64,000 bases of DNA from Bacteroidota bacterium (GTDB lineage Bacteria; Bacteroidota; Rhodothermia; JANXDC01). The stretch spans positions 16,673 through 80,672 of the forward strand of contig JANXDC010000011.1 of assembly GCA_025059945.1 (NCBI GenBank), in the 5' to 3' direction. Within the stretch, counting starts at the first letter, position 1; the number at the start of each line of letters is the position of its first letter. The notes below the pieces were generated by a model, which saw only the letters and a program-made list of their open reading frames with translations, made no database searches and was not told the DNA's origin. The position numbers were made by a program, and so were the translations under genes. Shown one piece after another: positions 15,326 to 63,416 of this stretch.

Positions 15326-15358
15326 ACGGAGCGCTCCTTGGCGCTCCGTTCTTTTTTT
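15326..15358 (+). terminator. Intrinsic terminator after tonB
   Basis: ACGGAGCGC-TCCTTG-GCGCTCCGT followed by TCTTTTTTT. Confidence 0.8.
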
Positions 15359-48637: not shown

Positions 48638-50710
48638 ATGGAGTGGATCCATTACCTGATCCCGCTGACGGGGCTTATCGCCCTGGGTTATGCCTTATGG
48701 CGCTCCGCGTGGGTAGCCCGACAAGATGCAGGCACGCCGGAGATGCAGGCTATTGCCGGGGCCATCGCAGAGGGTGCACGCGCTTTCTTGAGGCGCGAAT
48801 ATCGGGTGCTTTTCTGGTTTGTGCTCGTTCTAGCTGTGCTTCTGGTGTTGGCCAACCGAGACAACCCCGGCACCTCTCCACTTATCGCGCTCTCCTTCGT
48901 AACGGGGGCCTTCTGTTCGGGCTTGGCGGGGTTCCTAGGTATGCGCGTGGCCACGCTGGCGAACGTGCGCACCACACAGGCTGCGCGTACCAGTTTAAAT
49001 CAGGCCCTGCGCATGGCCTTCTCCGGCGGATCCGTTATGGGCATGAGCGTAGTGGGTCTGGGTGTGCTGGGCCTGGGCCTGCTTTTTTTGTTCTACACCC
49101 GCCTGGATTGGTCGATCGAGCGGGTCATCAACGTGATTTCGGGCTTTTCGCTCGGCGCCTCCTCGATTGCGCTCTTCGCCCGCGTTGGCGGGGGCATCTA
49201 CACGAAGGCCGCTGATGTGGGCGCGGACCTAGCCGGAAAGGTTTACGAGGGCATTCCCGAGGATGACCCCCGAAATCCGGCCGTGATCGCGGACAACGTG
49301 GGCGACAACGTCGGAGACGTGGCGGGCATGGGGGCGGACCTGTTCGAATCCTACGTGGGGTCGATCGTAAGCGCTATGGTGTTGGGGGCACTTTTTGTGG
49401 GGCTGCCCGAATTCAGCGGGGCTAGCCAGCTTAACGCTGTGCTGCTGCCCTTGGTGCTAGCCGGGGCCGGAATCGTGATTTCACTCCTGGGCACGGCCTT
49501 TGTTCGCGTCCGCGAGGGCGATAACCCCCAAAAGGGCCTCAACTGGGGCATTTTCGGGGCCGCCGTCCTTATGGTGCCGACCACCTACGCGATCGTCTGG
49601 GCCCTGCTGCCCGCTGAATGGTACTTTGAAGACCGCCTGTACACGGCCAACGGAGTCTTCGGGGCCACGCTGATCGGGCTCGCCGTGGGCGTCCTGATCG
49701 GTCTTTCGACGGAGTACTACTGCTCACCATACCGACGGCCTGTGCTTTCGATCGTGCGCCAGAGCGTTACGGGTCCAGCCACCAACATCATCGCCGGTCT
49801 GGGCGTGGGGATGGAGTCGACAGCCATTCCCCTGGTGCTGATCGGCTTCGGGATCTTGGGCGCCTACACGCTGGCGGGGTTATACGGCATCGCCTTAGCC
49901 GCCCTGGGAATGCTTTCCGTTACGGGCATTCAGCTCGCCACAGACGCATACGGACCTATAGCGGACAACGCGGGGGGGATTGCGGAGATGAGCCACCAAC
50001 CCCCGGAGGTGCGCGGCCGCACAGATAAGCTCGACGCGGTGGGCAACACGACGGCCGCTATTGGAAAGGGTTTCGCCATCGGATCGGCTGCGCTCACGGC
50101 CTTGGCCCTGTTTGCTGCCTTCCAACAGCAGGCGCAGATCCCTGTGATCAACCTTACCGAGGCCCATGTGATGGCCGGGCTTTTTATCGGCGCCGTCCTG
50201 CCGTTTCTGTTTAGCTCCTTTGCGATAGGAGCCGTGGGCCGCGCAGCCAAACAGATGATCCTCGAGGTGGGCCGGCAGTTTCGGGAGATCCCGGGCCTGC
50301 GCGAGGGCAAGGCGCGCCCCGAATACGCCCGGTGCGTGGACATCTCCACGCGCGCGGCCATCAAAGAGATGATTCCGCCCGGCCTCATGGCTATCCTGGT
50401 GCCCACTGCGATCGGGTTCATCGACAAGAACATGCTCGCTGGCCTGCTGGCGGGCGTGGTGGTAAGCGGGGTGCTGCTGGCCATCTTTCAGGCCAACGCC
50501 GGCGGGGCCTGGGACAACGCCAAAAAACGCGTCGAGGAAGGCATCGAACTAGAGGGGGTCCTCTACAAAAAGGGCACGGAGACGCACAAGGCCACGGTTG
50601 TGGGGGACACCGTGGGGGATCCGCTCAAGGACACCTCCGGGCCCTCGCTGAACATCCTGATCAAGCTTATCTCCGTTATCTCTCTTGTTATCGCGCCTCT
50701 GATCGCCTAA
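48638..50710 (+). CDS. hppA: Membrane-bound proton/sodium-translocating pyrophosphatase
   Basis: 690 aa, polytopic. [23 protein letters not shown] and [17 protein letters not shown] signatures. Confidence 0.95.
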
Positions 50711-51527
50711 ACGGCGGGGCTGCGACGCCCTCTGGGCCTTGTGGCCCCTTTGAGTCGGGGCTTTCAAGCCGGGTGCCCTTTTCCAGGGAGGCTAGGGCCT
50801 CCACGGGTCCGATCCAGACCCGCAGGCCCTCTGTTGCCGCCCGCAGGGCGGCTTCGATCTTGGGGCGCATGCCGTCGCGGATCCAGCCCGCCTTAAGCCC
50901 CTCTTGGGCTCTGTGGGTCGAGAGCCTCTGGATCGGACGTCCTACTTCGTCCCATACGCCCTCAGAGGCCGCAAGCCAGAGCAAGGCTTGGGACCTCAGC
51001 GCAAGAGCCACCTCCACGGCCACGGTGTCGGCGTTGACGTTGTATAGCTGGCCTTCGGCGTCTATTCCGAGCGGCGCAACCACGGGCAGATAGCCGGCCC
51101 GAAGCAGGGTGTACAGAAGCCCCGGACGAACGCCCCATACGTCGCCCACGTAGCCGAAGTCCACTAAGCCGCTTGCCGTCTGTTGGGGCGGTCGGCGCCT
51201 GACCTGCAACAGGCCGCCATCGGCTCCGGAAAGCCCGACGGCGGGCAGCCCGACGGACTGAGCCTGGGCCACAAGCCGTCGATTGAGCTCACCGCATACG
51301 GTCCACAACAGAATGCGCAGGTCCAGGTCGGTGGTCAGGCGGCGGCCCTCGACGAAGCGCGGCCCGTGGCCGATGGCGTGCGCCAGGTCCGTGGCTTGTT
51401 TGCCGCCTCCGTGCACGAGCACGACCGGGGCGCGAGCCCACCAGAAGCCAACGCCCTTCCACAGGGCCTGAAGCCGCTCTTCGGCCTCCAGCACCTCGCC
51501 GCCGACTTTGATCACGACAGGTTCCAT
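50688..51527 (-). CDS. argB: Acetylglutamate kinase
   Basis: ORF 50688-51767 trimmed to [13 protein letters not shown]. An alternative GTG at 51515 would give a GTGA overlap with the argF' stop. Amino-acid-kinase family motifs. The 3' end overlaps convergent hppA by 23 nt. Confidence 0.88.
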
Positions 51528-52534
51528 ACCCACTCCAAGATAGCCTTCTGCGCATGCAGGCGGTATTCGGCCTGCACCAGATGGCGCGCCCAGGGCCCAT
51601 CGAGCACGGCGTCGTCTACCACGACATTGCGCCGCACGGGCAAGCAGTGCATGAAAACGGCCTCTCGAGTCCGGCGCATGCGGGCCTCTGTTACGCGCCA
51701 GTCCCGCAGCGAAAGCCGAAGCTGGGACTCGGCCTCTGGGTCGGTGTAGGCGAGCCTGCCGCCCCACGCCTTGGCGTAGACCACCTCGGCGCCCTCAAAA
51801 GCCTCATCCAACGCGTCGGTTTCGCGCACCTCTAGCCCATGTTGGGCCGCGTATTGGCGCGCTAGGGCCATCACCTCGGGGTCCAGCTCGTAGCCGGCGG
51901 GGCGGGCTATGGTGACGCGCATGCTCAGGCGAGTGGCCATAAGCAGGGCCGAGTTGGGCACCGCCATGGGAAGCGCCTTGGGATGGTAGGCCCAGGTGAG
52001 CAGAAAAGAACGGCCCGCAAGGCGTTCTCGAAACAGGTCCATCAAGGTGGCCGCATCCCCCAGGGCCTGACACGGGTGCCAGAAGGCGGACTCGAGGTTG
52101 ATGATGGGCACGCTCGCGGCGCGCACGATCCGGCGCAAGAAGGCCTCAGAGCGGTCCTGTTCGTAATCCCGCAAGGAGGCGAAGGCGCGCACGCCTATGG
52201 CGTCGTAGTAGCGCGATAGAACCCCGATGGCCTCCTGGATGTGCTCCGCCTCCGGGCCCTCCATCACGACCCCATCGCGCCACTCAAAGCCCCAGGTTCC
52301 TTGACCGGGCACGAGCACCGAGACGTGCGCGCCCAGTTGCGCGGCCGCTAACTCCATAGAGGTGCGCGTGCGCAGGGAAGGGTTGAAGAAAAGCAGAGCG
52401 ATCGCGCGGCCTCGGGCTCGGTCCGTCCAGCGCCGCTCGCGCGCGAAGCGGCGCGCCGCCTCCAGGCGGTCCCACCAGAGGGCCTCATCGAGCAGGTGCC
52501 AATCGATAAGGTGGCGCAAGCTCTCAGGAGGCAT
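51512..52534 (-). CDS. argF: N-acyl-L-ornithine carbamoyltransferase (argF' type: N-acetyl- or N-succinyl-ornithine)
   Basis: 340 aa. FFNPSLRTRTS, HPCQ and HCLPVRR carbamoyltransferase motifs. No OTCase DxxxSMG loop; YAKAWGG instead, as in the AOTCase/SOTCase clade. Confidence 0.85.
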   Translation of the reverse strand: MPPESLRHLIDWHLLDEALWWDRLEAARRFARERRWTDRARGRAIALLFFNPSLRTRTSMELAAAQLGAHVSVLVPGQGTWGFEWRDGVVMEGPEAEHIQEAIGVLSRYYDAIGVRAFASLRDYEQDRSEAFLRRIVRAASVPIINLESAFWHPCQALGDAATLMDLFRERLAGRSFLLTWAYHPKALPMAVPNSALLMATRLSMRVTIARPAGYELDPEVMALARQYAAQHGLEVRETDALDEAFEGAEVVYAKAWGGRLAYTDPEAESQLRLSLRDWRVTEARMRRTREAVFMHCLPVRRNVVVDDAVLDGPWARHLVQAEYRLHAQKAILEWVWNLS

Positions 52535-53720
52535 AGGCTGGCTCCGTTCGGGCGATCCGGGCTAAGGCCCGCTCGAAAGCCTCCAGGAACAGCTCGATGT
52601 CCGCTTCCGAAAGCACAAGCGGGGGAAGCAGGCGGATGGTGTTGGGATGTTCCGAGCCGCCCACGAGCACCCCCTCCTGCCGCAGGGCAGCGATCACGGG
52701 CCCGGCGGGGCCCGGAAGCTCGACGCCGATCAAGCAGCCTCGGCCGCGCACGGCGCGCACGCGCCCAGCAAGCCCATCGCGGATGCGGGTGAAGATCTCG
52801 GGGGCGCGGGCCATCCAGTTGCCCTGTCGCAGCATCCGGAGCGTAGCCGCAACCGCGGCCATGGCGAGCATCCCGCCCCCGAAGGTCGTGCCCTGATCGC
52901 CAGGTCGCACGGTCTCGGCTATGCGCTCGGAGACGAGCACGGCTCCCACGGGCACGCCCGAGCCCAGGCTTTTGGCGAGCGCGATCAGATCGGGCCGCAT
53001 GCCGTAGGCCTCCGAGACGGAGAACGTGCCGGTTCGGCCCACGCCGGTCTGCACTTCATCGAAGATGAGCAGCACTTCGTGCGCATCGCATAGCCTGCGC
53101 AGCTCCCGATAGTACCCCGAGGGGGCCTCGTAGACCCCCGCCATGCTTTGGATGGGCTCCAGGATAACGGCCGCTATGTCGCGGCGCCGCCGCAGAAGTT
53201 CTTTAAGAGGGACCAGTTCGCCGAAGGGCACAAAGTACGTCTCGGGCAACACGGCCCTGTAGGGCCTTCGATAGGCCTGCCCCCAGGTCACGGCCAGGCT
53301 GCCCAGCGTGCGGCCGTGAAAATCCCCTCGCATGGCCACCACGCCGCTGCGGCCCGTGTAGGCCCGCGCCAGCTTAAGGGCCGTCTCCACGGCCTCTGTG
53401 CCGGAGTTGCAGAAGAAAACTTTCTTGAGCCCCTCCGGAGCCAGTTCGGCCAGTTCGCGGGCGGCCTCGGCGCGCACAGGGCTGTAGACCACGTTGGAGT
53501 AAAACACAAGATGCTGCGTCTGTCGGCAGATAGCCTCCACCACGGGCGGCGGATTATGCCCCAGCAAGGTGACGCAGTGGCCTCCGTAAAGATCCAGATA
53601 ACGCCGGCCCTCCACGTCCCACACGTAGGCGCCTTCGCCCCGCACCAGCGCCAAGGGCCATTTCTGGTAGGTGGGCAGTTCGTAGGTCTCCTCCAGAAGG
53701 CGAGTGTGCTCAAAGCTCAT
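52524..53720 (-). CDS. argD: Acetylornithine/succinylornithine aminotransferase (class III PLP)
   Basis: 398 aa. GSEAVE-like NSGTEAVE, IFDEVQTGVGRTG, and the PLP-Lys region LAKSLGSG. 11-nt overlaps with both neighbours. Confidence 0.92.
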   Translation of the reverse strand: MSFEHTRLLEETYELPTYQKWPLALVRGEGAYVWDVEGRRYLDLYGGHCVTLLGHNPPPVVEAICRQTQHLVFYSNVVYSPVRAEAARELAELAPEGLKKVFFCNSGTEAVETALKLARAYTGRSGVVAMRGDFHGRTLGSLAVTWGQAYRRPYRAVLPETYFVPFGELVPLKELLRRRRDIAAVILEPIQSMAGVYEAPSGYYRELRRLCDAHEVLLIFDEVQTGVGRTGTFSVSEAYGMRPDLIALAKSLGSGVPVGAVLVSERIAETVRPGDQGTTFGGGMLAMAAVAATLRMLRQGNWMARAPEIFTRIRDGLAGRVRAVRGRGCLIGVELPGPAGPVIAALRQEGVLVGGSEHPNTIRLLPPLVLSEADIELFLEAFERALARIARTEPAYAS

Positions 53721-54738
53721 GGGTTACGTCCTCCGCAACGGAACCGGGAATCAGGCCCAGGGTCTCGGGCCAAGTGAAGAGCCGGTTGAGGTTCTGCACC
53801 GCCTGGCTGGCCGCGCCTTTGAGCAGGTTATCCAGGGCAAAGCCGATGACGAGCCGCCCATCGCGCAGAACCCAACCGATGTCGGCATAAGGCGTGCCCA
53901 CGCTCCAGCGCAGCTCAGGAAGCAAGCCGGGCCAGAGCCGCACGCAGCCGCCCTCGAGGTAGGCCTCCTGAAAACAGGCCTCCACGAAAGAGGCTGAAAG
54001 AGGCCTTTGCGGCAGTAGGTGGATCACCCCCCAGATGCCGCGCGTCCACGGCCCGGAGGCGGGCACGAAGGCCAGCTGCCAGTCGCCTTGCAGCCGGGCC
54101 TCGATTTCCGGCAGGTGCTGATGAGCCAAGACCTTGTAGGCCCGCACGTTGCCCTGGCGCGTGGGGAAGTGCGTCGTCTCCGAGGGTCGCACACCGGATC
54201 CGGAGGCTCCCGTGAGCGCCGTTACGTGGGCATGTCCCCGAACTCCGGCTCGGTCCAAGGGCCAGAGCGCGAGCAGGATCCCCGTGGCGAAACAGCCCGG
54301 ATTGGCGATCCAGCGGACATCCTCCGGATACGGACCGAGCTCGGGAAGCCCATATTGAAAACGCCCCACAAGTTCCGGGGCCGGATGGGTGAACCCGAAC
54401 CAGTGGGGATAAAGCTCAGCCCGGGGCAGGCGGAAGTCGGCGCTCAGATCTATGATCGCGCCGCCGTAGCCCCGTTGCAGGAGCTCGCGGACCGTTTCCG
54501 CTCCCTTTCCGTGCTCGGCCGCCACAAAGACCGCATCCGGAGAGCCGTTCAAGTCCAGCCGCTCGACGAAGCGCAGCTCCGAAAGCCCCCGCAGTTCCGG
54601 ATGCGCGGCCCAAAGGGGAGATCCGGCGTGATGCCGGCTGGTGACCGCGACCAGTTGAACGCGGGGATGGCCGAGCAAAAGCCGGATGAGCTCCCGGCCC
54701 GCGTAGCCAGATCCGTGCAGCAGGGCGACGCGCTTCAT
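53710..54738 (-). CDS. argC: N-acetyl-gamma-glutamyl-phosphate reductase
   Basis: ORF 53710-54966 trimmed to MKRVALLHGSGYAGRELIRLL. Active-site ANPGCFATG. ATGA overlap with the upstream gene stop (54738-54735). Confidence 0.92.
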   Translation of the reverse strand: MKRVALLHGSGYAGRELIRLLLGHPRVQLVAVTSRHHAGSPLWAAHPELRGLSELRFVERLDLNGSPDAVFVAAEHGKGAETVRELLQRGYGGAIIDLSADFRLPRAELYPHWFGFTHPAPELVGRFQYGLPELGPYPEDVRWIANPGCFATGILLALWPLDRAGVRGHAHVTALTGASGSGVRPSETTHFPTRQGNVRAYKVLAHQHLPEIEARLQGDWQLAFVPASGPWTRGIWGVIHLLPQRPLSASFVEACFQEAYLEGGCVRLWPGLLPELRWSVGTPYADIGWVLRDGRLVIGFALDNLLKGAASQAVQNLNRLFTWPETLGLIPGSVAEDVTHEL

Positions 54739-55814
54739 CCCACCACCCCTACGTGAGCGCGTCCGTTTGCGCCCCATCGCTCGCGCACAGCGAGCGCCTC
54801 CAGCACGCGTTCGGCTAGCGCCTCGGGTTCGCGTTGCGCGTTGAGGGCCGGGATGCCCAGGGCGTTTTGGATGTACTGTTTGCCCACGGCGTTGTCCGTT
54901 ACAGGTCCGACCATGACCGTAATCGGGCTCCGGTAACGGGTCCTGAAGAGATAATCGGCGGCCCATGCGCCGGCCAGGTCCGCGGCCGCCACCACGTGGG
55001 CGGCCGTAAGGGCCTCGAGCTCTTTGTCCATCAGCAGCTCATCGACCCCATAGTAGCCGATAAACCCATCGCCAAGCTCCAGCACCAGTACATCGGGGCG
55101 ATAAGCGTTCAAGGCCGCAATAAGGCCTTTGGCGATGGGCACCATGTTTTTGTTCACGGAGGAGACCACGCCGGCGTCGACGAACGTCAGACACGCTACG
55201 GCGCCGGCCTCGCGCATGGCCCGCACGTCACGCAATAGGGCCGCGCCTGTCAGTTTTGCCGCCGCTACGCGCAGCCCGTGCGCGCGCAGGCCCCGTACGA
55301 TCTGCGCCGCCGCATACGTTTTGCCCGTATTCATGGCTGTGCCGCTGACCATGATCAGAGGGGCCGCCTGGGGCAGGCTATAGACAGGTTCCAGGGCGTG
55401 ATCTTGGATGCGGGCGTGCCGTTTGATCCCGTTTAGCTCGTAGACCACGGCCCCCAGCACCTCGACCCGCAGCGCCGGACCCAGCTCGGGATGGTCTGAG
55501 GTGCACTGCCCCAGAATCCCGCCCATGTTGAGCACGTGCAGCACGTCGCCGACTTGAATCCGGCGCGGGATGCGGCCGCTATAACCCTTCAAGGCCTGTC
55601 GTTCGCCCAGGGCCCCGACCAGGATCTGCCCGCGGCGCAGGACCTGAAAGCTCCCGTCGCAGGTCTCCACTTGGTTGTAGCGATCTTTTTCTTCAAGCAC
55701 CCGCACGGCCACACAGTAGCCCTCTTCGGCTACGATGTAGGGGCTGATTTCCAACTCGGGGCCCAGGTTGCAGGGGGCCGTGCTGGAGGCGATCAGATCG
55801 ACGCGCAGGCGCAT
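54735..55814 (-). CDS. Uncharacterised protein: beta-rich N-domain plus SIMIBI/dethiobiotin-synthetase-like P-loop domain, embedded in the arg operon
   Basis: 359 aa. P-loop VSGTAMNTGKTYAAA and Walker-B-like VLVLELGDGFIG. Starts 2 nt after the argG stop and overlaps the argC start by ATGA. The family was not identified by eye; DUF1611/DgcN-like and CobQ/BioD-like are the candidates. Confidence 0.8.
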   Translation of the reverse strand: MRLRVDLIASSTAPCNLGPELEISPYIVAEEGYCVAVRVLEEKDRYNQVETCDGSFQVLRRGQILVGALGERQALKGYSGRIPRRIQVGDVLHVLNMGGILGQCTSDHPELGPALRVEVLGAVVYELNGIKRHARIQDHALEPVYSLPQAAPLIMVSGTAMNTGKTYAAAQIVRGLRAHGLRVAAAKLTGAALLRDVRAMREAGAVACLTFVDAGVVSSVNKNMVPIAKGLIAALNAYRPDVLVLELGDGFIGYYGVDELLMDKELEALTAAHVVAAADLAGAWAADYLFRTRYRSPITVMVGPVTDNAVGKQYIQNALGIPALNAQREPEALAERVLEALAVRERWGANGRAHVGVVG

Positions 55815-55816
55815 GG

Positions 55817-57034
55817 CTACTCCTTCTGAGGCTGGGTGGCGAACGCAGACCGCACGCGGTGCGCAAGCAAGGCGGGCACGCCCCAGATGCGGGCGAAGCC
55901 TTCGGCGTCGCGGCCGCTCCAGAGCTTGTTGACCTCCCCGTAGGTGGCCAGATCCGGGGCGAAGAGCGCATACGGGCTCTCGGCCCCCAGCACCTCGATT
56001 CGGCCCTGCTGAAGCCGGAGGCGCACGGTGCCCGTTACGAACTGTTGGGAAGAGTCCAAAAACGCCTCGATATCCCGCATCACGGGGTCAAAGTACTGGC
56101 CCTCGTGCAGCAGCATGCCGTAGAAGTCGGCCAGATGATCCTTCTGGAAACGCTGCCACTTGGTGAGCACGAGCTTCTCCAGCTCCCGGTGCGCGGTAAT
56201 GAGCACAAGCGCGGCGGGGGCCTCAAAGCCTATCCGGCCCTTGATGCCCAAGATTGTATCCCCGACGTGCGTGCCGCGCCCTACCCCGTGGGCGGCCCCG
56301 ATGCGGTTCAGGGCCTCAATAAGCGCGACGGGGTCCATGGGCTCCCCGTCTAGAGCGGTGGGCAAGCCCTTTTCGAAATCGATGCGCAGCTCCACCCCCT
56401 CCTGGGAGGCGAGCGCAGGGTCCTGCGTCTCCACCCAGGCCTCCGGGGGCAGAGGCTCAGAGGGGGTGAGCGTCTCCCGACCGCCGATCGTCGTGCCCCA
56501 CAGGCCGCGGTTAATCGAGTAGCTGGCCTTGGCCTCCGAGATGGGAAAACCGCGCGCCCGCAAATAAGCGGCCGTCTGCTCGCGCGTCCAGCCCAGATCC
56601 CGAATCGGGGTCAGGATGGCTAGATCGTCGGCCAGCACCCGCAGGGCCACATCAAAGCGGATCTGGTCGTTGCCCGCCCCCGTAGAGCCGTGCGCGACGG
56701 CCCACGCCCCCAGCTGGCGGGCCATCTCCACGACCTTGCGGGCCTGCACCACCCGTTCCGGGCCCACGCAGAGCGGATAGACCCCGCCTCGCAGCACATT
56801 GCCCTTGATGAGGTAGCTTAGGTGCGCGACAAACAGCTCACGGCGGCCGTCTACGGTCCAATGCCCGGCTGAACCCAAGGCCTTCGCCCACCCGGCTAGC
56901 CGTTCGGCCTCGGCTTCGTCGATACCCCCTGTGTTGACGGTTACCGTGTAGACGGGATCTCCGTAGTGCTCTCTGAGGTAGAGCACGCAGAAGGACGTAT
57001 CCAGCCCTCCGCTAAAGGCCAACACAATTGCCAT
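55817..57034 (-). CDS. argG: Argininosuccinate synthase
   Basis: ORF 55817-57070 trimmed to MAIVLAFSGGLDTSFCVLYL. The upstream TTG start would lie inside the leader terminator U-tract. GGAGG upstream. Confidence 0.93.
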   Translation of the reverse strand: MAIVLAFSGGLDTSFCVLYLREHYGDPVYTVTVNTGGIDEAEAERLAGWAKALGSAGHWTVDGRRELFVAHLSYLIKGNVLRGGVYPLCVGPERVVQARKVVEMARQLGAWAVAHGSTGAGNDQIRFDVALRVLADDLAILTPIRDLGWTREQTAAYLRARGFPISEAKASYSINRGLWGTTIGGRETLTPSEPLPPEAWVETQDPALASQEGVELRIDFEKGLPTALDGEPMDPVALIEALNRIGAAHGVGRGTHVGDTILGIKGRIGFEAPAALVLITAHRELEKLVLTKWQRFQKDHLADFYGMLLHEGQYFDPVMRDIEAFLDSSQQFVTGTVRLRLQQGRIEVLGAESPYALFAPDLATYGEVNKLWSGRDAEGFARIWGVPALLAHRVRSAFATQPQKE

Positions 57035-57063
57035 CTTGTGGCCGTGCCTCCGGTTTAGTGCTG

Positions 57064-57096
57064 AAAACAAAAACGCCGGTTCGAGTGAACCGGCGT
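57064..57096 (-). terminator. Intrinsic terminator hairpin inside the argG 5' leader (candidate attenuator)
   Basis: Minus strand reads ACGCCGGTTC-ACTC-GAACCGGCGT (perfect 10-bp stem) followed by TTTTGTTTT. It ends 29 nt before the argG ATG. No minus-strand gene lies upstream that it could terminate. Confidence 0.7.
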
Positions 57097-57120
57097 CTGC
57101 GTATACGAGCTAGGATGATT

Positions 57121-57222
57121 TTATACAGCTTTCCGTGCCACGCAACGCCCGTTCACCCGTCGGGGGGCTCCCCCTCGTCGGGATCGTCGGACGCGGGCGA
57201 TGTGGGCGGTGTGCTTCGCCAT
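57121..57222 (-). CDS. Putative Arg-rich leader peptide (33 aa) of the arg operon
   Basis: ATG 57222 to TAA 57121, translated by hand as MAKHTAHIARVRRSRRGGAPRRVNGRCVARKAV. Nine Arg codons, five of them CGA. Codons 23-28 form the antiterminator strand. Too short for the supplied ORF track. Confidence 0.45.
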   Translation of the reverse strand: MAKHTAHIARVRRSRRGGAPRRVNGRCVARKAV

Positions 57223-57233
57223 AGGCGGGTGCA

Positions 57234-57262
57234 AGTGTACGGAATGCGCGGGGGAATGTCAA
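57234..57262 (-). promoter_or_regulatory. Candidate sigma70-type promoter for the arg leader and operon
   Basis: Minus strand TTGACA-17 nt-TACACT. The -10 ends 11 nt before the leader ATG, which implies a very short 5' UTR. Confidence 0.4.
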
Positions 57263-57354
57263 GAGGCCGAAACGATTTTGTTACAAGTGCCCGCAGTTCT
57301 TGCGCCTCCCTGTCGGGTAGCGCGAGATTGCGCGGCGTAAGCAAGGAGGTGAAG

Positions 57355-58620
57355 ATGCGTTGGGTAGCCTCAGGCCTATTGCTGTTCTTTTGGGTGCCGA
57401 CTCTGGGGGCACAGCCCGATCGCCCGAGCGGTTCTCGGTTCGATCCCCGCATGCTGCAAGAGCGCGCCATTCAAGCGGCGCTTCAGTGGGTTGAGGCGCA
57501 TCGGGAGGCGCACGTGCAGGAGTGGATCCGGCTTACGGAGATCCCGGCGCCCTCTGGGCGCGAGGCGCGCCGAGCGGCCTATATTCGAGCGGAGATGGAG
57601 CGCATGGGGCTGGACTCCGTGCACATCGACGCCAAGGGCAACGTCGTGGGTATTTTGCGCGGCCGATCCCGCCATCCGGCTATTGCCGTGGCCGCGCACA
57701 TGGACACGGTGCATCCGCTGGAGGAGATCCGGGTGCGCCGAGAGGGGGACACCCTCTATGCGCCGGGGGTGCTGGACGATACGGCCGGGCTTGTGGTGAT
57801 GCTCCAGACGGCTCGGGCGCTTCGGGCCAGCCGGGTCCCTTTAAGCGGGGATGTGATCTTGATCGCCACGGTGCAGGAGGAGGTGGGGCTAAAGGGCATG
57901 GAGTATTGGCTCAACCAAAACCCTCGACGGGCCGACATGGTCATCGCCGTGGACGGCAACCTGGGGGATGTGCCCTATGGAGCGCTTGGCATCAAGTGGT
58001 TTCGGTTTCACTATCGCGCCTATGGGGCGCACACCATGCAGAGCCTGGGTCAGCCCAACCCCAACCGAGCCGTGGCGCGGGCGATTCAGGACATTTACCG
58101 GCTGCCCTTGCCGCATCCCTCGGGCGCGTTTGTGATCTACAACGTCGGCCTGATCGGCGGGGGCACGGTGCCCAACGCCGTCTCCCAGCACTCCTACTTC
58201 ACCGTGGACCTGCGCTCTCCGAGTGCGCGCTTGTTGCAGGAGTACGCCGACTCCATCTTGGCGCGCGCCCGCCGGGCGGCTGAGCAAGAGCGGGTGCGCT
58301 TTGAGCTTGAGGTGCTCAACGACGCCCCAGCTGGCGGCACGGAGGCGGAGCTAGCCGACCGGCGCGAACACCCGCTAGTGCAGACGGCTGTGCACGTGCT
58401 GAATTACCTCGAAGTGGGCAGGCAACTGGGGCGTCCTGTGCGACCTGTAGCGACGGGTTCTACGGACGCCAACATGGCCGTTGTCCGAGGCATCCCGGCC
58501 ATCGCCTATGGGCGCTGCTTCGGTCGCGATCAGCACACCCTGCAGGAGGCGGCCCACATCCCCAGCGCCTTTACCGCCACAAAGGGCCTTATTCTGCTCT
58601 TGGCCTCGCTGCTGCGCTAG
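57355..58620 (+). CDS. Secreted M20 family metallopeptidase (ArgE/DapE/CPG2 fold)
   Basis: ORF 57028-58620 trimmed to MRWVASGLLLFFWVPTLGAQ (signal peptide), with AAGGAGG 6 nt upstream. Motifs AHMDTVH, VLDDTAG, TVQEEVGLKG. Confidence 0.88.
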   Translation: MRWVASGLLLFFWVPTLGAQPDRPSGSRFDPRMLQERAIQAALQWVEAHREAHVQEWIRLTEIPAPSGREARRAAYIRAEMERMGLDSVHIDAKGNVVGILRGRSRHPAIAVAAHMDTVHPLEEIRVRREGDTLYAPGVLDDTAGLVVMLQTARALRASRVPLSGDVILIATVQEEVGLKGMEYWLNQNPRRADMVIAVDGNLGDVPYGALGIKWFRFHYRAYGAHTMQSLGQPNPNRAVARAIQDIYRLPLPHPSGAFVIYNVGLIGGGTVPNAVSQHSYFTVDLRSPSARLLQEYADSILARARRAAEQERVRFELEVLNDAPAGGTEAELADRREHPLVQTAVHVLNYLEVGRQLGRPVRPVATGSTDANMAVVRGIPAIAYGRCFGRDQHTLQEAAHIPSAFTATKGLILLLASLLR

Positions 58621-59503
58621 GACGCGGCCACCAAGCTAGCAGCAGCCCGCCTAACGTGAGCACCATACCCAGGCCGCTCACAAGACCTGGAACCTCACCC
58701 CAAAGCGCGTAGGCCATAAGCGAAGCCAAGAGGGGCTCGGAGAATACCACAAGCGCCACTAGAGCGGGCGTAAGAAAGCGCACGAGGTAGTTGAGCGTTC
58801 CGTGTCCGATGAGCTGCGGACCGAGCGCCATAAAGGCGCACAGGCCATAGAAGGTTCGCGTATAGCCTGTTGCAGCAAGCCCCATTGCGAGCAGGAGCAC
58901 ACCCAGCAGAAGGGCCACCACGCCGTATAGAAGTCCCACGTAGAGAAGCCAAGATATGCGCTGGCGCATAAGGCGCCCCACGAGCAAATAACCCGCAAAG
59001 CAAAGCGCTGAGCTCACCGCCAAAGCATTGCCCAGAGGGGCTTGGGGGAAGGATGCGGAAGCCTGTCGCGCATCTCCCCAGCCGATAAGGGCTCCGCCCA
59101 GGGTGGCCAGCGCAACGCCAAGCCCGCCGGCAAAGCTCAGCCGCTCCCGGAGCCACCAATAGCCCAAAATGGCAATAAAGATCGGATGAATCGAGACGAG
59201 CACCGAGGCGCTGGCCACGGAAGTATACCGCAGGGCATAGACCCATAGGGCAAAGTGCAACGCCAAAAACGCGCCGGCCAGGGCGATCCAAAGCCCATCC
59301 CGGGCTCGAATCCGCTTCAGTTCCTCTCTCCGCCATATCCCCACGGGAAGCGCGAGCAGAGCGATCGCCCAAAGCGCCCGCCAGAAGGCGATCGCAAGCG
59401 GTGGAGCCTGCGGCGCCTCCGCCATGGCCAGCCGCACCAGAATAGGGCTTGCGGCAAAGGCTATCATGGCCAGGGGCAGCAACAGCAGAAGGCGCGTCTT
59501 CAT
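58589..59503 (-). CDS. EamA/DMT family transporter
   Basis: ORF trimmed to MKTRLLLLLPLAMIAFAASPILVRLA. Ten hydrophobic segments in a 5+5 arrangement. The 3' end overlaps the convergent M20 gene by 32 nt. Confidence 0.85.
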   Translation of the reverse strand: MKTRLLLLLPLAMIAFAASPILVRLAMAEAPQAPPLAIAFWRALWAIALLALPVGIWRREELKRIRARDGLWIALAGAFLALHFALWVYALRYTSVASASVLVSIHPIFIAILGYWWLRERLSFAGGLGVALATLGGALIGWGDARQASASFPQAPLGNALAVSSALCFAGYLLVGRLMRQRISWLLYVGLLYGVVALLLGVLLLAMGLAATGYTRTFYGLCAFMALGPQLIGHGTLNYLVRFLTPALVALVVFSEPLLASLMAYALWGEVPGLVSGLGMVLTLGGLLLAWWPRPSAAARPRAE

Positions 59504-59650
59504 CGTATAAGCTTTTCTAATGAAAGATCGCTTTTTTCGATTGCTTTTTGGCCTACCTATGTTTACTTTCGCGAGGCTCATCAGGGGGCCCTGGAGCGCA
59601 GGGCCTCACGTACAGGCGACTTACCCAGGGAAGGAGACCTAGGTGTGCAG

Positions 59651-59692
59651 CAGGGAGAATCATTTCTTTGCACGTTCTCCTGTGTTTTTTTT
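59651..59692 (+). terminator. Terminator-like hairpin plus T8 in the long leader upstream of the response-regulator gene
   Basis: CAGGGAGAA / TTCTCCTG (8 bp with one bulge), 15-nt loop, then TG and TTTTTTTT. About 85 nt upstream of GTG 59777. Confidence 0.4.
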
Positions 59693-59776
59693 GACCTTTC
59701 CGAGATCGCAGATGAGGGGGGAGAAGGAGTCCGCTCGCGGCGAGCATCCTGGCGGGAGCCGGCACGTCTGCCGGTC

Positions 59777-60136
59777 GTGCTCGTCGTGGAGGATAACCCC
59801 GACGTACGGCGGCTGCTCGTTTTGTATTTGCGCGGCCGTTACGAGGTGGTCGAAGCCGCAACGGGCGAGGAGGCCTTTCGGATCGTCCAAGAGCGGCCGG
59901 TGGATGCGATCCTTATGGACATCAATCTGCCCGGGGATTGGAGCGGGCTGGATGCGGCGCGCGCCATCCGGGCTCTGCCTGGCATGGCGCATGTGCCCAT
60001 TATCGCCCAGACGGCCTATGCCGCGCTTTTCGATGAACAGCAGGTGCTTGCCGCTGGCTGCTCTTATTACATGAACAAGCCCATATACCGTCATGAGCTG
60101 CTTAGCGTGCTGGAGCGTTTTCTTTCGCACCCGTAG
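59777..60136 (+). CDS. Single-domain CheY-like response regulator (orphan)
   Basis: Receiver domain VLVVEDNPDVRRL...ILMDINLPG...MNKP in the frame of ORF 59255-60136. There is no in-frame ATG near the domain start, so GTG 59777 is proposed. The start is uncertain. Confidence 0.7.
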   Translation: MLVVEDNPDVRRLLVLYLRGRYEVVEAATGEEAFRIVQERPVDAILMDINLPGDWSGLDAARAIRALPGMAHVPIIAQTAYAALFDEQQVLAAGCSYYMNKPIYRHELLSVLERFLSHP

Positions 60137-61265
60137 CCGCGCTTTTCTCCAGTAGCCGATTCCAGATGCTGAGGTGTTGGCGGAGGAGGCTGCGCCAGCT
60201 GTAATGCTCCTGCACCGCCAGCCTAGCTTGCCGGCCCAGTTCGTGTAGGGCCGTTCGTGTGCTTAGGATGGTTTGCAGGTGCGCGCGCCAGCGCGGGGCG
60301 TCTTGGGCGGGCAAAAGCCACCCCATTTCGGGCTGGCGCACGGCATCTTGGATGCCCTCTAGATGCGCCGCCAGCACCGGTGTGCCGCACAAGGCAGCCT
60401 CCAGGATCACCACGCCAAATCCCTCTATGTCCCCAGGCACGGGCACGTTGGGCATTACGAACAGATCGGCGGCCGCATACACGGTGTGCAAAAGCTCCTC
60501 GGGCACTCTTCCGGGGGTCCAGATGCGCTCCGGACGTTCAAGCATCCGAATGGCTTCTCGAATCGTTCCCCGCTCCGGTCCGTCGCCGATAAGGGCGTAT
60601 TGCGTTTCAACGGGCAGCGCGGGCATGACTTCGCGCAAAAACCAGCCGAAGCCCTTTCGCCGCACCCACCGGCCCACGCTCACCAGAAGCGGGGCTTCCG
60701 GGTCGAGTGCCTCCCAGCCATGCGCGCGCAACAGGGCCCGGGCTTGGGTCCGATCCGGGACCGTACGGAGGCGCGCCGGATCGATTCCGTTGGGCACCAC
60801 GAAGCCTTTTTCCGGGGTGAGCCCCCGGGCTTGGCATGCCGCAAGCGTGGCCCGGCTGGGGGTGCAGACGGCATCCAGTTCCTTCAGCACCCGCCTGAGC
60901 CAGCGCTGATAGGGCCCGAAAGGCGCGATCACGTCTAGGCCGTGTGCGATCGCCACACAAGGCACCGCGATGCGATCTCGCAACAGGGGCACGAGCACGG
61001 CCGTGACCATGGAGGTGAAAAGCACCAGATCCGGCTGCAGGCGCCTTAGAAGGCGGGGCAAGTTCCCGCGGAGCCAGAGCAGAAAGGCCGCTGTGGCGGG
61101 TCCGATGAATCGCCAGGGCACCTGTAAGAGCACCGGGAAGGTCGCCACATCCGGCTCCCTGCGCAGCGCCTCAAGCAGCTCCCAGCTCACCCGCTGCATG
61201 CCTCCTGTGCTCCGCATAAGATCGCCTGCCGGAGGATGGATATGGGAGATGAAAAGAATCCGCAT
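60102..61265 (-). CDS. Glycosyltransferase family 4 (GT-B fold)
   Basis: 387 aa. C-terminal EX7E-type motif EGFGVVILEAALCGTPVLA. The 3' end overlaps the convergent regulator gene by 35 nt. Confidence 0.85.
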   Translation of the reverse strand: MRILFISHIHPPAGDLMRSTGGMQRVSWELLEALRREPDVATFPVLLQVPWRFIGPATAAFLLWLRGNLPRLLRRLQPDLVLFTSMVTAVLVPLLRDRIAVPCVAIAHGLDVIAPFGPYQRWLRRVLKELDAVCTPSRATLAACQARGLTPEKGFVVPNGIDPARLRTVPDRTQARALLRAHGWEALDPEAPLLVSVGRWVRRKGFGWFLREVMPALPVETQYALIGDGPERGTIREAIRMLERPERIWTPGRVPEELLHTVYAAADLFVMPNVPVPGDIEGFGVVILEAALCGTPVLAAHLEGIQDAVRQPEMGWLLPAQDAPRWRAHLQTILSTRTALHELGRQARLAVQEHYSWRSLLRQHLSIWNRLLEKSAATGAKENAPAR

Positions 61266-61266
61266 T

Positions 61267-61767
61267 TTATCGAATCGGACCGATATAGCGCGCCCCGCGG
61301 CGAAACCCTTCTAGGGCGTCTTGGGGCAGGACCTCGGCCAGAAAAACCGGATACACCGTGCGGGTACTGAGCTCCCGCAGCGGCACCCAGGCCACTTGAC
61401 GGATCATCTGCTCTGAGCCCAGCTCCGGATCCGTTCCCGTGCGCAGAACACCCCCGGTGACTTTGGCCAAAAAATACAGCTCCACGGCGTGCAGCGCCTC
61501 GCGCACGAAATCCGATACGTACACCAAAGGCCCCATCGCCACCTCAAGGCCCGTCTCCTCGCGCACCTCGCGCTGAAGGGCCTCCGGCAGGGTCTCGCCG
61601 AACTGCACCCCTCCGCCGGGCGGAATCCAGTACGTGGAGCCGGGATCCCGGAAGCTGCGGTGCTCTACGAGCAGCACCATTTCCTCCTGCAGGATCAGGG
61701 CGTTGACGCGCACCCGCGTGCGCCCCGCGTAGGCCTGATAGGCCGAGGCCCAAAAAGACGCACTCAC
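61267..61767 (-). CDS. NUDIX hydrolase
   Basis: 166 aa. Complete Nudix box [24 protein letters not shown]. The GTG start forms a GTGA overlap with the pyrG stop. Confidence 0.88.
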
Positions 61768-63416
61768 GGCCGCCCCACGGCCTCTTGAGTCGGTTCCAGA
61801 AGCCCATTAGCCTGCGCGTAACGCAGCGCCGCTTCCACGAAAGAGACGAAAAGCGGATGAGGCCTTTCGACAGTGCTCTTGAGCTCAGGGTGAAATTGAC
61901 AGCCTAAAAACCAGGGATGATCGGGCAACTCTATGATCTCGACCAGGTCTCGGCCCGGATGGATTCCGCTAAAGACAAGCCCATGAGCCTCGAGGAGTTC
62001 CCGGTAAGCGTTGTTGAATTCATATCGATGTCGATGGCGTTCGTAGATGCGATCTTGCCCGTCGTAAGCCCGATGGGCCAGCGTGCCGGCTTTGAGTTCG
62101 CACAAGTAAGCCCCAAGCCGCATCGTGCCCCCTTTTTGACGCACCCGCCGCTGCTCAGGCAGCAGGTCGATGACCGGATGTGGGGTATGCCGGTCGAACT
62201 CCGTGCTGTTGGCCCCCTTTAGGCCGCAGACGTTTCGGGCGAACTCGATTACGGCGCATTGCATGCCCAGGCAGATCCCGAAAAGGGGGATGCGCCTTTC
62301 CCTGGCCAGCTGGATGGCGGTGATTTTGCCCTCGATACCCCGTTGCCCGAAGCCAGGGGCGATCAGCATACCGGCCACGCCTTCTAAGAGCTCTTCTGCG
62401 TTATCCGCGTTCAGGTACTCCGATTGCACCCAACGAATGTGCACCTCTACCCCGTGCACTACACCGGCGTGTACGAAAGCCTCCGTGATGCTCTTATAAG
62501 CATCCCGGTGCTCGACGTATTTGCCCACGAGCGCAATCGGAATGCGCCCTTGCGGATGCTGCAGGCGCTCCAGAAAGGCGACCCATTGCGTTAGGTTCGA
62601 TTCTCGGATCGGCACCCCAAGCTTCTCGAGCACGATCTGATCTAGGCCCTCAGCCTGCATCATGAGGGGCACTTCGTAGATCGAGGGCGCATCCAGGGCC
62701 GCGATGACGGCCCGCTCCTCTACGTTGCAGAAAAGCGCGATTTTGCGTCGGATGGCGCTATCCAAAGGCACCTCGGTGCGGCAGACCAGGATGTCTGGCT
62801 GGATGCCGTTTTCCAGCAGCATCTTCACCGAATGCTGCGTGGGCTTGGTCTTGAGCTCTCCGGCCGCGCGCAGGTAGGGGATGAGCGTAAGGTGGATGAA
62901 GACCGTCTGCTGCGGTCCGAGCTCCAGGCGCAGCTGTCGGATGGCCTCCAGAAAAGGTTGGCTTTCGATGTCGCCAACCGTACCTCCGATCTCCGTGATC
63001 ACCACGTCGTATTGTCCCGTATCGCCCAGCCGGCGCGTCCAGGATTTGATTTCGTCTGTGATATGGGGTACGACCTGAACGGTTTTGCCCAAATACTCGC
63101 CAGCTCGCTCCTTCATGATCACGGAGTAGTAAATCCGACCTGTCGTGACATTGTTGGCTTGCGAGGTGGGAACGCCCAGAAAGCGTTCGTAATGCCCCAA
63201 GTCCAGGTCGGTCTCCGCCCCGTCGTCGGTCACGTAAACCTCCCCGTGCTCGTAGGGGTTCATCGTGCCAGGATCGACGTTGATGTAAGGGTCGAACTTC
63301 TGGATGGTGACGCGAAGGCCCCGAGAGGCGAGCAGTTTGCCTAAGGAGGCGCAGATAATGCCCTTGCCAAGCGAGGAGCTCACGCCTCCGGTCACAAATA
63401 CGTACTTGGCCGCCAT
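61764..63416 (-). CDS. pyrG: CTP synthase
   Basis: 550 aa. [21 protein letters not shown]-terminus and the glutaminase domain GICLGMQ. Confidence 0.96.

Follow-up and report, generated by a model that had tools for sequence, protein, structure and literature searches.

A candidate arginine-specific, ribosome-mediated attenuator upstream of the argG operon in a member of the Rhodothermia

In a 64,000-nt stretch of contig JANXDC010000011.1, from a Bacteroidota bacterium of the class Rhodothermia (this whole stretch is referred to below as the window), the arginine-biosynthesis operon headed by argG is preceded by a short open reading frame (ORF) rich in Arg codons and by a strong intrinsic terminator. 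From sequence comparison and folding models, we consider it very probable that this element is a classical ribosome-mediated leader-peptide attenuator, which would read the supply of arginyl-tRNA and control the argG operon. An Arg attenuator had been proposed at this site from the sequence of the window alone (the original prediction), and that candidate is supported both by a comparison with 20 related loci and by folding of the leader RNA around a modelled ribosome footprint. The geometry had been likened to that of textbook attenuators, and at the sequence level each of their features is present: a short ORF between the promoter and the first gene, a cluster of codons for the operon's own amino acid, an intrinsic terminator 5' of the structural gene, an antiterminator that is exclusive with this terminator, a further helix (1:2) that involves the regulatory codons, and a choice of fold that depends on where a ribosome stalls. 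The sequence elements, their conservation, their covariation and the thermodynamic switch are direct observations.

Organization of the argG leader

The promoter, leader ORF, hairpin and argG were all found at the coordinates that had been predicted for them, on the minus strand. The features are as follows.

57234..57262, minus strand: promoter TTGACA-17-TACACT (-35 box 57262-57257, 17-nt spacer, -10 box TACACT 57239-57234)
57121..57222, minus strand: leader ORF MAKHTAHIARVRRSRRGGAPRRVNGRCVARKAV (ATG at 57222, 33 codons, TAA at 57123-57121)
57193..57215, minus strand: region 1, which supplies the 5' strand of the 1:2 (anti-antiterminator) helix; it extends into the beginning of the Arg run and pairs with region 2 in the minimum-energy fold of the free RNA
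57175..57195, minus strand: regulatory Arg run RVRRSRR, codons 10-16 (CGC GTC CGA CGA TCC CGA CGA)
57139..57159, minus strand: region 2, CGGGUGAACGGGCGUUGCGUG, codons 22-28 (ORF nt 64-84), which pairs with either region 1 or region 3
57083..57102, minus strand: region 3, ACGCAGACGCCGGUUCACUC, comprising the 5' flank, 5' arm and loop of the terminator; its pairing with region 2 gives the antiterminator
57064..57098, minus strand: intrinsic terminator (regions 3:4) with a G+C-rich stem of 10-12 bp, loop ACTC and T-tract TTTTGTTTT
55817..57034, minus strand: argG, argininosuccinate synthase (TIGR00032, 328.7 bits versus a cut-off of 268.2)

The promoter matches the consensus at 10 of 12 positions, was the sole sigma-70-like match in the 10 kb scanned (52000-62000) and is retained, as TTGACATTCCCC...ATTCCGTACACT, in the closest relative (locus L161). 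The leader ATG lies 11 nt past the -10 hexamer, and the codon counts of the original prediction hold, with nine Arg codons among the 33, five of these nine being CGA. Starting 24 nt after the leader stop is the terminator hairpin, ACGCCGGTTC-ACTC-GAACCGGCGT followed by TTTTGTTTT (57096-57064), which in our terminator scan grew to 12 pairs (57098-57071), the longest terminator-like stem found in a scan of the whole window. The argG ATG (57034) follows 29 nt beyond the terminator. That the terminator is a property of the upstream gene was ruled out, as that gene is divergent. Elsewhere in the 64 kb there is only one other strong terminator-like hairpin, at 15326-15349 on the plus strand, with a perfect 9-bp stem (ACGGAGCGC/GCGCTCCGT) and then a T-run; strong intrinsic terminators thus seem to be rare in the source genome.

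Arg-richness alone is weak evidence in a window of 64 % GC, because 6 of its 187 ATG-initiated ORFs of 20-45 codons (3-5 %) are equally Arg-rich, having at least five Arg in seven residues. The caveat attached to the original prediction, that spurious ORFs in GC-rich DNA tend to be Arg-rich, was therefore correct.

Conservation among related argG loci

The comparison drew on 160 argG loci, taken from collections with one genome per species and from metagenomes, and on a further 12 obtained by exact-protein look-up. The layout of the window, with a short ORF containing an Arg run, a strong terminator and then argG, is shared by 20 of these loci, which are those whose ArgG is nearest to that of the window (L001-L005, L007, L034, L081, L082, L086, L087, L161, L163, L165 and L167-L172). 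They come from Rhodothermales, Rubrivirga and Balneolales metagenome-assembled genomes, Rhodothermus bifroesti and metagenome contigs, and together with the window (WIN) they form a family of 21 leaders. An NCBI protein assigned to a "Bacteroidetes bacterium" metagenome-assembled genome is 100 % identical to ArgG of the window. ArgG of L161 is 82 % identical to that of the window, whilst R. bifroesti is the nearest named species (73 %); in the latter, a gene caller annotated a 37-aa ORF at the position of the leader. Across the family, the ORF has 17-38 codons, of which 3-10 specify Arg, the distance from stop to terminator is 22-55 nt and that from terminator to argG is 25-122 nt. Retention of a short ORF with Arg runs in orthologous leaders, suggested beforehand as a check on the candidate, is thus what these loci display. 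We did not find the combination of ORF and terminator within 400 nt upstream of argG in loci from Planctomycetota, Gemmatimonadota, Spirochaetota, Proteobacteria or Bacteroidia.

Several observations indicate that the Arg codons themselves are maintained. Over the 21 leaders, Arg accounts for 24 % of codons in the ORF frame versus 10-11 % in both other frames. Two Balneolales-type leaders, L007 and L086, lie in DNA of 33-35 % GC and carry seven CGN/AGR Arg codons per 27-28 codons; these cannot stem from base composition, because the surrounding DNA is AT-rich. The peptides that these two encode, MKIVELHNNRIDVRRRPRRVVNRKAVP and MKMTKLHNNRVVVRRRPRRGTANRKAMP, come from sequences that differ synonymously inside the run (CGC to CGT, AGG to AGA). 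Moreover, the peptides of the window and L161 share little except RRSRRG..PR.VNGR, and this divergence points to selection on the Arg codons and the RNA, not on the protein product. The upstream neighbour of the leader varies (M20 peptidase, folD, pgl or RNase T), whilst linkage to argG is kept.

A predicted ribosome-dependent choice between competing helices

The free leader RNA of the window folds as 1:2 plus 3:4, with a minimum energy of -70.5 kcal/mol and z = -3.2 against shuffled sequences. The energies of the competing hairpins, whose comparison had been proposed, are -35.0 kcal/mol for the 2:3 antiterminator and -19.9 kcal/mol for the terminator; that of 1:2 is -35.9 kcal/mol. The antiterminator complementarity described in the original prediction exists and is longer than was proposed: in place of a 6+5+4-bp helix, 57159-57139 pairs with 57102-57083, the terminator loop included, in 8+10 bp around a single bulge (duplex energy -29.7 kcal/mol). 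Within region 2, GGGTGAACGGGCGT is conserved in L161 although the flanks differ.

We modelled translation with a 28-nt ribosome footprint and forbade pairs across the ribosome. An earlier mask that let helices enclose the ribosome gave unphysical folds and was dropped. With this model, the window terminator had a probability of 1.00 on free RNA; this fell to 0.00 when any of codons 11-18 (V R R S R R G G) occupied the A-site and was back at 1.00 from codon 19 to the stop. The claim that a stall within RVRRSRR frees the antiterminator strand is borne out by the model. It had also been proposed that a ribosome at the stop codon covers this strand and so allows the terminator to form; the terminator does form in the model, but 16 nt separate the end of region 2 from the stop, so that in the window such a ribosome only abuts it. 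In L002, L007, L034, L081, L082, L086 and L087, region 2 reaches or overlaps the stop codon in textbook style.

In every one of the 21 leaders, the terminator formed when the RNA was free (probability >0.5) and also when a ribosome sat at the stop codon. A dip in terminator probability on or beside the Arg run was also found in L003, L007, L034, L082, L086, L087, L163, L165, L169 and L171. Of the codons at which a stall flips the fold, 44 % specify Arg, versus 18-21 % elsewhere (odds ratio 2.8-3.4, P ~1e-6 to 1e-5).

Covariation of the terminator and antiterminator

When 20 leaders were aligned with MAFFT, the start codon, Arg block and terminator came into register, whilst region 2 did not. 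The best-conserved blocks were the start codon, CGACGnnnnCGACG (R-R-x-R-R) and the terminator, and outside the Arg block and terminator the mean column identity was 45 %. RNAalifold recovered only the terminator stem, in which 8 of 11 pairs carry compensatory changes, so that the covariation sought for this helix was found.

As region 2 would not align, the antiterminator was tested without an alignment, by swapping: for every pair of leaders we calculated the best duplex between the segment following the Arg run of one and the terminator 5' flank, arm and loop of the other. Cognate combinations averaged -22.9 kcal/mol versus -17.6 kcal/mol for non-cognate ones, and none of 20,000 permutations was as good; covariation was thus also detected in the second helix for which it had been proposed. 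Of the 21 cognate region 2 segments, 12 rank first or second against their own terminator. The pairing has been solved in at least seven distinct sequences; three of these solutions are listed here, and others occur in L034, L081, L082/L003 and L002.

WIN and L161: region 2 GGGUGAACGGGCG; terminator 5' side CGCCGGUUCAC(U/C)C
L163 and L167: region 2 GGAACCGGCG..CCUGUC; terminator 5' side GACAGGGCGCCGGUUCC
L007 and L086: region 2 GGAAGGCU.UGCC; terminator 5' side GGCAG..(C/U)CUUCC

In 19 of the 21 leaders, the sequence from region 2 to the terminator loop forms one closed hairpin (-17 to -41 kcal/mol). The same swap test applied to region 1 (the part of the ORF leading to the Arg run) and region 2 gave -19.5 versus -16.8 kcal/mol, with 1 of 20,000 permutations as good, although some individual leaders are weak.

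Arg codon choice and initiation of the leader

The 21 leaders contain 154 Arg codons, comprising 58 CGA, 38 CGC, 36 CGT, 9 CGG, 8 AGG and 5 AGA; CGA is thus the commonest, and CGA, CGC and CGT together make up 86 %. In the genes of the window, CGA represents 13 % of Arg codons, compared with five of nine in its leader. CGU, CGC and CGA are read by a single tRNA-Arg(ICG), CGA through a weak I:A wobble, and poorly read codons sharpen sensing, as do the CUA codons of leuL. We infer that the Arg run would act as a sensitive gauge of how far the major tRNA-Arg is charged.

The leader ATG of the window has no Shine-Dalgarno sequence before it. In the window, L001, L081, L087, L161, L163 and L165, the start codon lies 7-11 nt past the -10 box and is embedded in GCC(N)ATG; a TTGAC-type -35 box, with the same 7-11-nt spacing from -10 box to start, is seen in most relatives, and in a Rubrivirga-like group the distance from the -10 box to the start is ~22 nt. 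The leader start of the window would accordingly sit ~4-5 nt from the deduced transcription start. Because the start codon hugs the -10 box and no Shine-Dalgarno sequence is present, the sequence suggests a leader mRNA that is leaderless or near-leaderless.

Proposed mechanism

Transcription would begin a few nucleotides upstream of the leader ATG, and a ribosome would translate the 33-codon leader behind RNA polymerase. When charged tRNA-Arg is scarce, the ribosome is predicted to stall within RVRRSRR, chiefly on CGA, and to cover region 1. Region 2 (57159-57139) could then pair with the 5' arm and loop of the terminator (57102-57083), blocking termination and letting polymerase enter argG. 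When Arg is plentiful, the ribosome would pass region 2 and reach the stop, region 2 being covered or retaken by region 1; the 10-12-bp terminator with its U-tract would form, and transcription would end at about 57064-57072. Untranslated RNA should also terminate, because 1:2 and 3:4 both form in it. Termination under Arg excess is better explained by re-pairing of region 1 with region 2 behind the ribosome, cover of region 2 during codons 22-28 and steric exclusion.

A number of points weigh against this account. We infer the transcription start, translation of a leader that lacks a Shine-Dalgarno sequence, stalling, terminator 3' ends and the response to arginine. Region 2 of the window ends 16 nt upstream of the stop codon and is left uncovered by a ribosome there. 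Under strict equilibrium, the mean terminator probability falls below 0.5 across the Arg run in only 9 of 21 leaders, with a few others dipping at or beside the run; by the model, leaders without an equilibrium switch would depend on kinetics, with 2:3 formed before the 3' arm is transcribed, a route that folds of truncated transcripts support for L005 and L081. By the duplex and hairpin tests, there was no convincing antiterminator in L001 and a partial one in L004. Two family members are degenerate, L171 having only three Arg codons and L170 requiring a TTG start. The permutation and Fisher P values overstate independence, because the leaders are phylogenetically related. Finally, tblastn found no argR within the 64-kb window, to which this judgement applies, and an ArgR may be encoded elsewhere in this genome and in those of the relatives.

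Alternative explanations

The same device could respond to a signal other than arginyl-tRNA. The ribosome might be slowed by a polybasic or Pro-containing nascent chain (RRPRRRP, RPVRRPRRPR) or by CGA-CGA pairs regardless of Arg, in which case the element would serve as a readout of general translation capacity, transcription-translation coupling, EF-P or temperature, as in pyrBI/ermC. Pro is indeed interleaved with Arg in L002, L004, L005, L163, L167 and L007, CGA is over-used, and the equilibrium model does not switch in several leaders. We nevertheless regard this explanation as unlikely: among the ~170 loci inspected the element was seen only before arginine-biosynthesis operons, Arg is the sole conserved residue class, Pro-free runs are common (RVRRSRR in the window, RRRRFRRR in L034, RRRRR in L168), and the codons used are those of the major tRNA-Arg, as a charging sensor would need.

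Less room still is left for a switch operated by a ligand or an RNA-binding protein, such as an arginine riboswitch, a T-box or a TRAP/PyrR-like factor, in which the ORF would be incidental. A terminator in the 5' leader is common to all such mechanisms, and arginine T-boxes exist in Firmicutes (PMC1262725). Against this, there was no Rfam match beyond chance in 56900-57500 of the window (E ≤ 10) or in the 20 related loci (gathering score), the in-frame ORF and its frame-specific Arg enrichment are conserved, and the position of the Arg run coincides with the codon range of ribosome-dependent switching. A mean column identity of 45 % outside the Arg block and terminator also means that neither a conserved aptamer nor a repeated protein-binding motif is present. 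A metabolite riboswitch was rejected on these grounds, with RNAalifold finding only the terminator, and a T-box was rejected for want of any Rfam T-box match in 56900-57500 or the 20 loci.

It is just as improbable that the unit stands alone, encoding a small basic protein or yielding a small RNA (sRNA) that ends at its own terminator, and lies beside an argG that has its own promoter. The 37-aa ORF called as a gene in R. bifroesti would fit such a view, and in other bacteria terminated attenuator transcripts, like leader peptides, are able to work in trans (rnTrpL, peTrpL; PMC7968998, PMC7298713). The peptide, however, is not conserved past the Arg run, the promoter scan of the 29 nt between terminator and argG in the window gave no promoter-like site, linkage to argG is constant whilst the upstream neighbour changes, and the antiterminator complementarity would have no role. 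A stand-alone small protein was therefore rejected, given the diverged peptide and the kept linkage; a function in trans alongside attenuation may exist. As for a spurious Arg-rich ORF that happens to lie beside a terminator-like hairpin in GC-rich DNA, the frequency of such ORFs in the window speaks for it, but chance does not explain an arrangement that recurs in 20 related loci, AT-rich genomes included, with covariation and positional tuning, and its probability is negligible.

The argG operon and neighbouring genes

The gene cluster downstream of the candidate attenuator and its divergent neighbour comprise the following.

50688..55814, minus strand: rest of the operon, namely a 359-aa P-loop protein, argC, an argD-like aminotransferase, an OTCase-like carbamoyltransferase and an argB-like kinase
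54735-55814, minus strand: the 359-aa protein (X), between argG and argC, with the Walker-A motif SGTAMNTGKT
57355-58620, plus strand: M20 ArgE/DapE-type deacylase, divergent, sharing the 320-bp control region

The six genes of the operon (argG-X-argC-argD-argF'-argB) are contiguous or overlapping on one strand; the argD-like product is a class-III aminotransferase and argF' has the OTCase fold. Protein X is found at 68-81 % identity in five Rhodothermales arg operons, argC elsewhere directly following argG. Its matches to DUF1611 and CbiA P-loop families were sub-threshold only, and no relative in PDB was found by sequence. In the sister class Bacteroidia, the homologous operon opens with argR and a GNAT gene, and X holds the slot that the GNAT gene takes there. 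We take DUF1611 proteins to include glutamate N-acetyltransferase, and X might, on this assumption, be a non-canonical first enzyme of the pathway. Being of the ArgE/DapE type, the M20 protein may be the deacylase of the arginine pathway; its gene shares the control region in the window and L161 and not in the other relatives (where folD, pgl or RNase T is found).

Arg-rich ORFs in other Bacteroidota

Short ORFs with Arg runs were also seen before arg operons outside the 21-leader family. In AT-rich Flavobacteriia loci, the operon opens with a GNAT gene and has upstream of it a conserved short ORF ending (P)ARRFRRP(LGV)* (L051 2076-2174, L068 2037-2144, L070 2000-2107 and L074 1960-2067, Aquimarina; also L053 2075-2182 and L066 1902-2006). 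These loci have a conserved 5' untranslated region (UTR), CTAGTTAACGAAAGGGGCTACGGCCGACGATTTAGAGTTACTATT, complementary to the Arg codons TCGTCGCCCCTT, as well as a small CCCC-TTG-GGGG hairpin with a T-rich tail at the ORF end, an architecture unlike that of the window. Bacteroidia-type loci have short ORFs before GNAT-argG (L055 2158-2253, L094 1036-1092, L100 1600-1749, L091 1031-1096, L106 1597-1716, L042 2212-2286, L077 2127-2207 and L108 283-363) that end in Arg runs (RRHVRRCA*, RRVRRRA*, SLRRTLRRQ*, VVRRRQSLLNA*); in L055 and L094 a small TGCC-N7-GGCA hairpin, with a T-run after it, carries the stop codon in its loop. In Kapaibacteria, L038 (~2150-2250) and L045 (~2210-2295) carry Arg-rich short ORFs, MTTLQPHRLLRRRLPLWEVR... 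and MKLRRIRYDRRRLPLREFRQVARVCIRI, before GNAT-argG; they share RRRLPLxE(V/F)R, and no obvious intrinsic terminator follows. Over the AT-rich loci, there were 31 short ORFs ending in Arg runs on the argG strand versus 11 on the opposite strand.

A tentative view, which we would not yet favour over its negation, is that Arg-codon leader ORFs form a widespread and undescribed class in Bacteroidota/Rhodothermota (FCB), with at least two architectures, in place of ArgR. The first may be the four-region attenuator of Rhodothermales and Balneolales, on a near-leaderless mRNA. The second may be a compact form in Flavobacteriia (Aquimarina), Bacteroidales (Muribaculaceae) and Kapaibacteria, with the Arg run (RRFRRP, RRHVRR, RRVRRR) at the ORF end; here a small U-tract hairpin overlapping the stop, or a conserved 5' UTR that pairs with the Arg codons, may be involved.

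Should the argG leader prove to be a conserved Arg attenuator, it would fill the arginine gap among leader-peptide attenuators and imply that a whole lineage sets arg-operon expression by arginyl-tRNA charging, not by free arginine. It would account for the regulation of Rhodothermales arg operons; the Bacteroidia operons checked begin with argR. It also bears on the translation of near-leaderless mRNAs without Shine-Dalgarno sequences and on CGA codons as sensitive sensors. For annotation, it provides a recognizable signature by which to mark a cis-regulatory feature that at present goes unannotated or is occasionally called a hypothetical 37-aa protein.

Comparison with known systems

A search of Rfam with 56900-57500 of the window (E ≤ 10) gave only chance matches to terminator-like sRNAs and no leader family (Trp_leader, His_leader, Leu_leader, Thr_leader, Phe leader, Bacteroid-trp or leu/phe leader); the 20 related loci had no match at the gathering score. 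The leader peptides matched no family in NCBIfam or Pfam, and the motif CGACGNNNNCGACG, used as a search probe, was too unspecific in GC-rich DNA for finding more copies. In the full-text literature searched, no Arg leader-peptide transcription attenuator is described, in keeping with the remark in the original prediction that no such class was known, and the phrases "arg operon leader" and "arginine-rich leader peptide" are absent; paywalled work lay outside this search, which leaves some risk of prior mention. A comparative study lists T-boxes as the RNA-level control of arginine genes (PMC1262725), and a transcriptome of Flavobacterium psychrophilum reports leader-peptide attenuators for ilvE, hisG and trp and none for arginine (PMC9723704 and supplement). 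Judged by its sequence, the element works like the curated leader families yet belongs to none, and arginine is a new specificity.

Leader-peptide attenuation is known for Trp, His, Phe, Leu, Thr, Ile/Val and, recently, Cys. Textbook control of arginine genes is by ArgR/AhrC, which binds DNA and senses free arginine, whilst T-boxes bind uncharged tRNA directly. Both ArgR/AhrC and arginine T-boxes have the same targets as the present element, the arginine-biosynthesis genes. In the fungal arginine attenuator peptide (AAP; arg-2/CPA1), an upstream ORF likewise controls an arginine-biosynthesis gene in response to arginine. The AAP, however, is eukaryotic, its nascent peptide senses free arginine in the ribosome, stalling and repression occur at high Arg, and neither Arg codons nor transcription termination are involved.

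Among bacterial leader ORFs that respond to arginine, orf34 of the Salmonella speF leader (PMC6386406) resembles the candidate in that ribosomes pausing at adjacent Arg codons when arginine is low bring about an alternative mRNA fold. It differs in having two Arg codons, in acting through Rho-dependent termination, unmasking of a ribosome-binding site and RNase G decay, and in preceding a polyamine gene, with no intrinsic terminator before arginine genes. The Staphylococcus aureus leader peptide rbfL (PMC13009471) similarly senses arginine limitation by rare Arg codons; there, a ribosome-binding site is occluded, the target is translation initiation of a biofilm regulator, no terminator or antiterminator is present and pausing represses. 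Leaderless poly-Cys short ORFs of mycobacteria (bioRxiv 10.1101/834739) are alike in that runs of codons for a single amino acid attenuate the cognate biosynthetic operon outside Proteobacteria. They differ in their amino acid, cysteine, and in their host group, Actinobacteria. Their mechanism is reportedly independent of a canonical intrinsic terminator.

The Bacteroid-trp leader of Rfam and the hisG and ilvE leaders of F. psychrophilum (PMC9723704) share with the candidate the phylum-level group, the class of mechanism and the order of a short ORF rich in one amino acid followed by a terminator before a biosynthetic operon; those leaders sense Trp, His and Ile, and the Bacteroid-trp model is unmatched here. 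Compared with the enterobacterial attenuators trpL, hisL, leuL, thrL, pheL and ilvL/ivbL, the element of the window would sense arginine, belongs to a Rhodothermota/Bacteroidota host and has no similarity in sequence or to the Rfam models; its leader is without a Shine-Dalgarno sequence and probably near-leaderless, and region 2 lies inside the ORF, not just past the stop. What it has in common with them is the design: a promoter-proximal ORF with a run of codons for the end product, regions that pair as 1:2, 2:3 and 3:4, and a fold that would be picked by the position of the ribosome.

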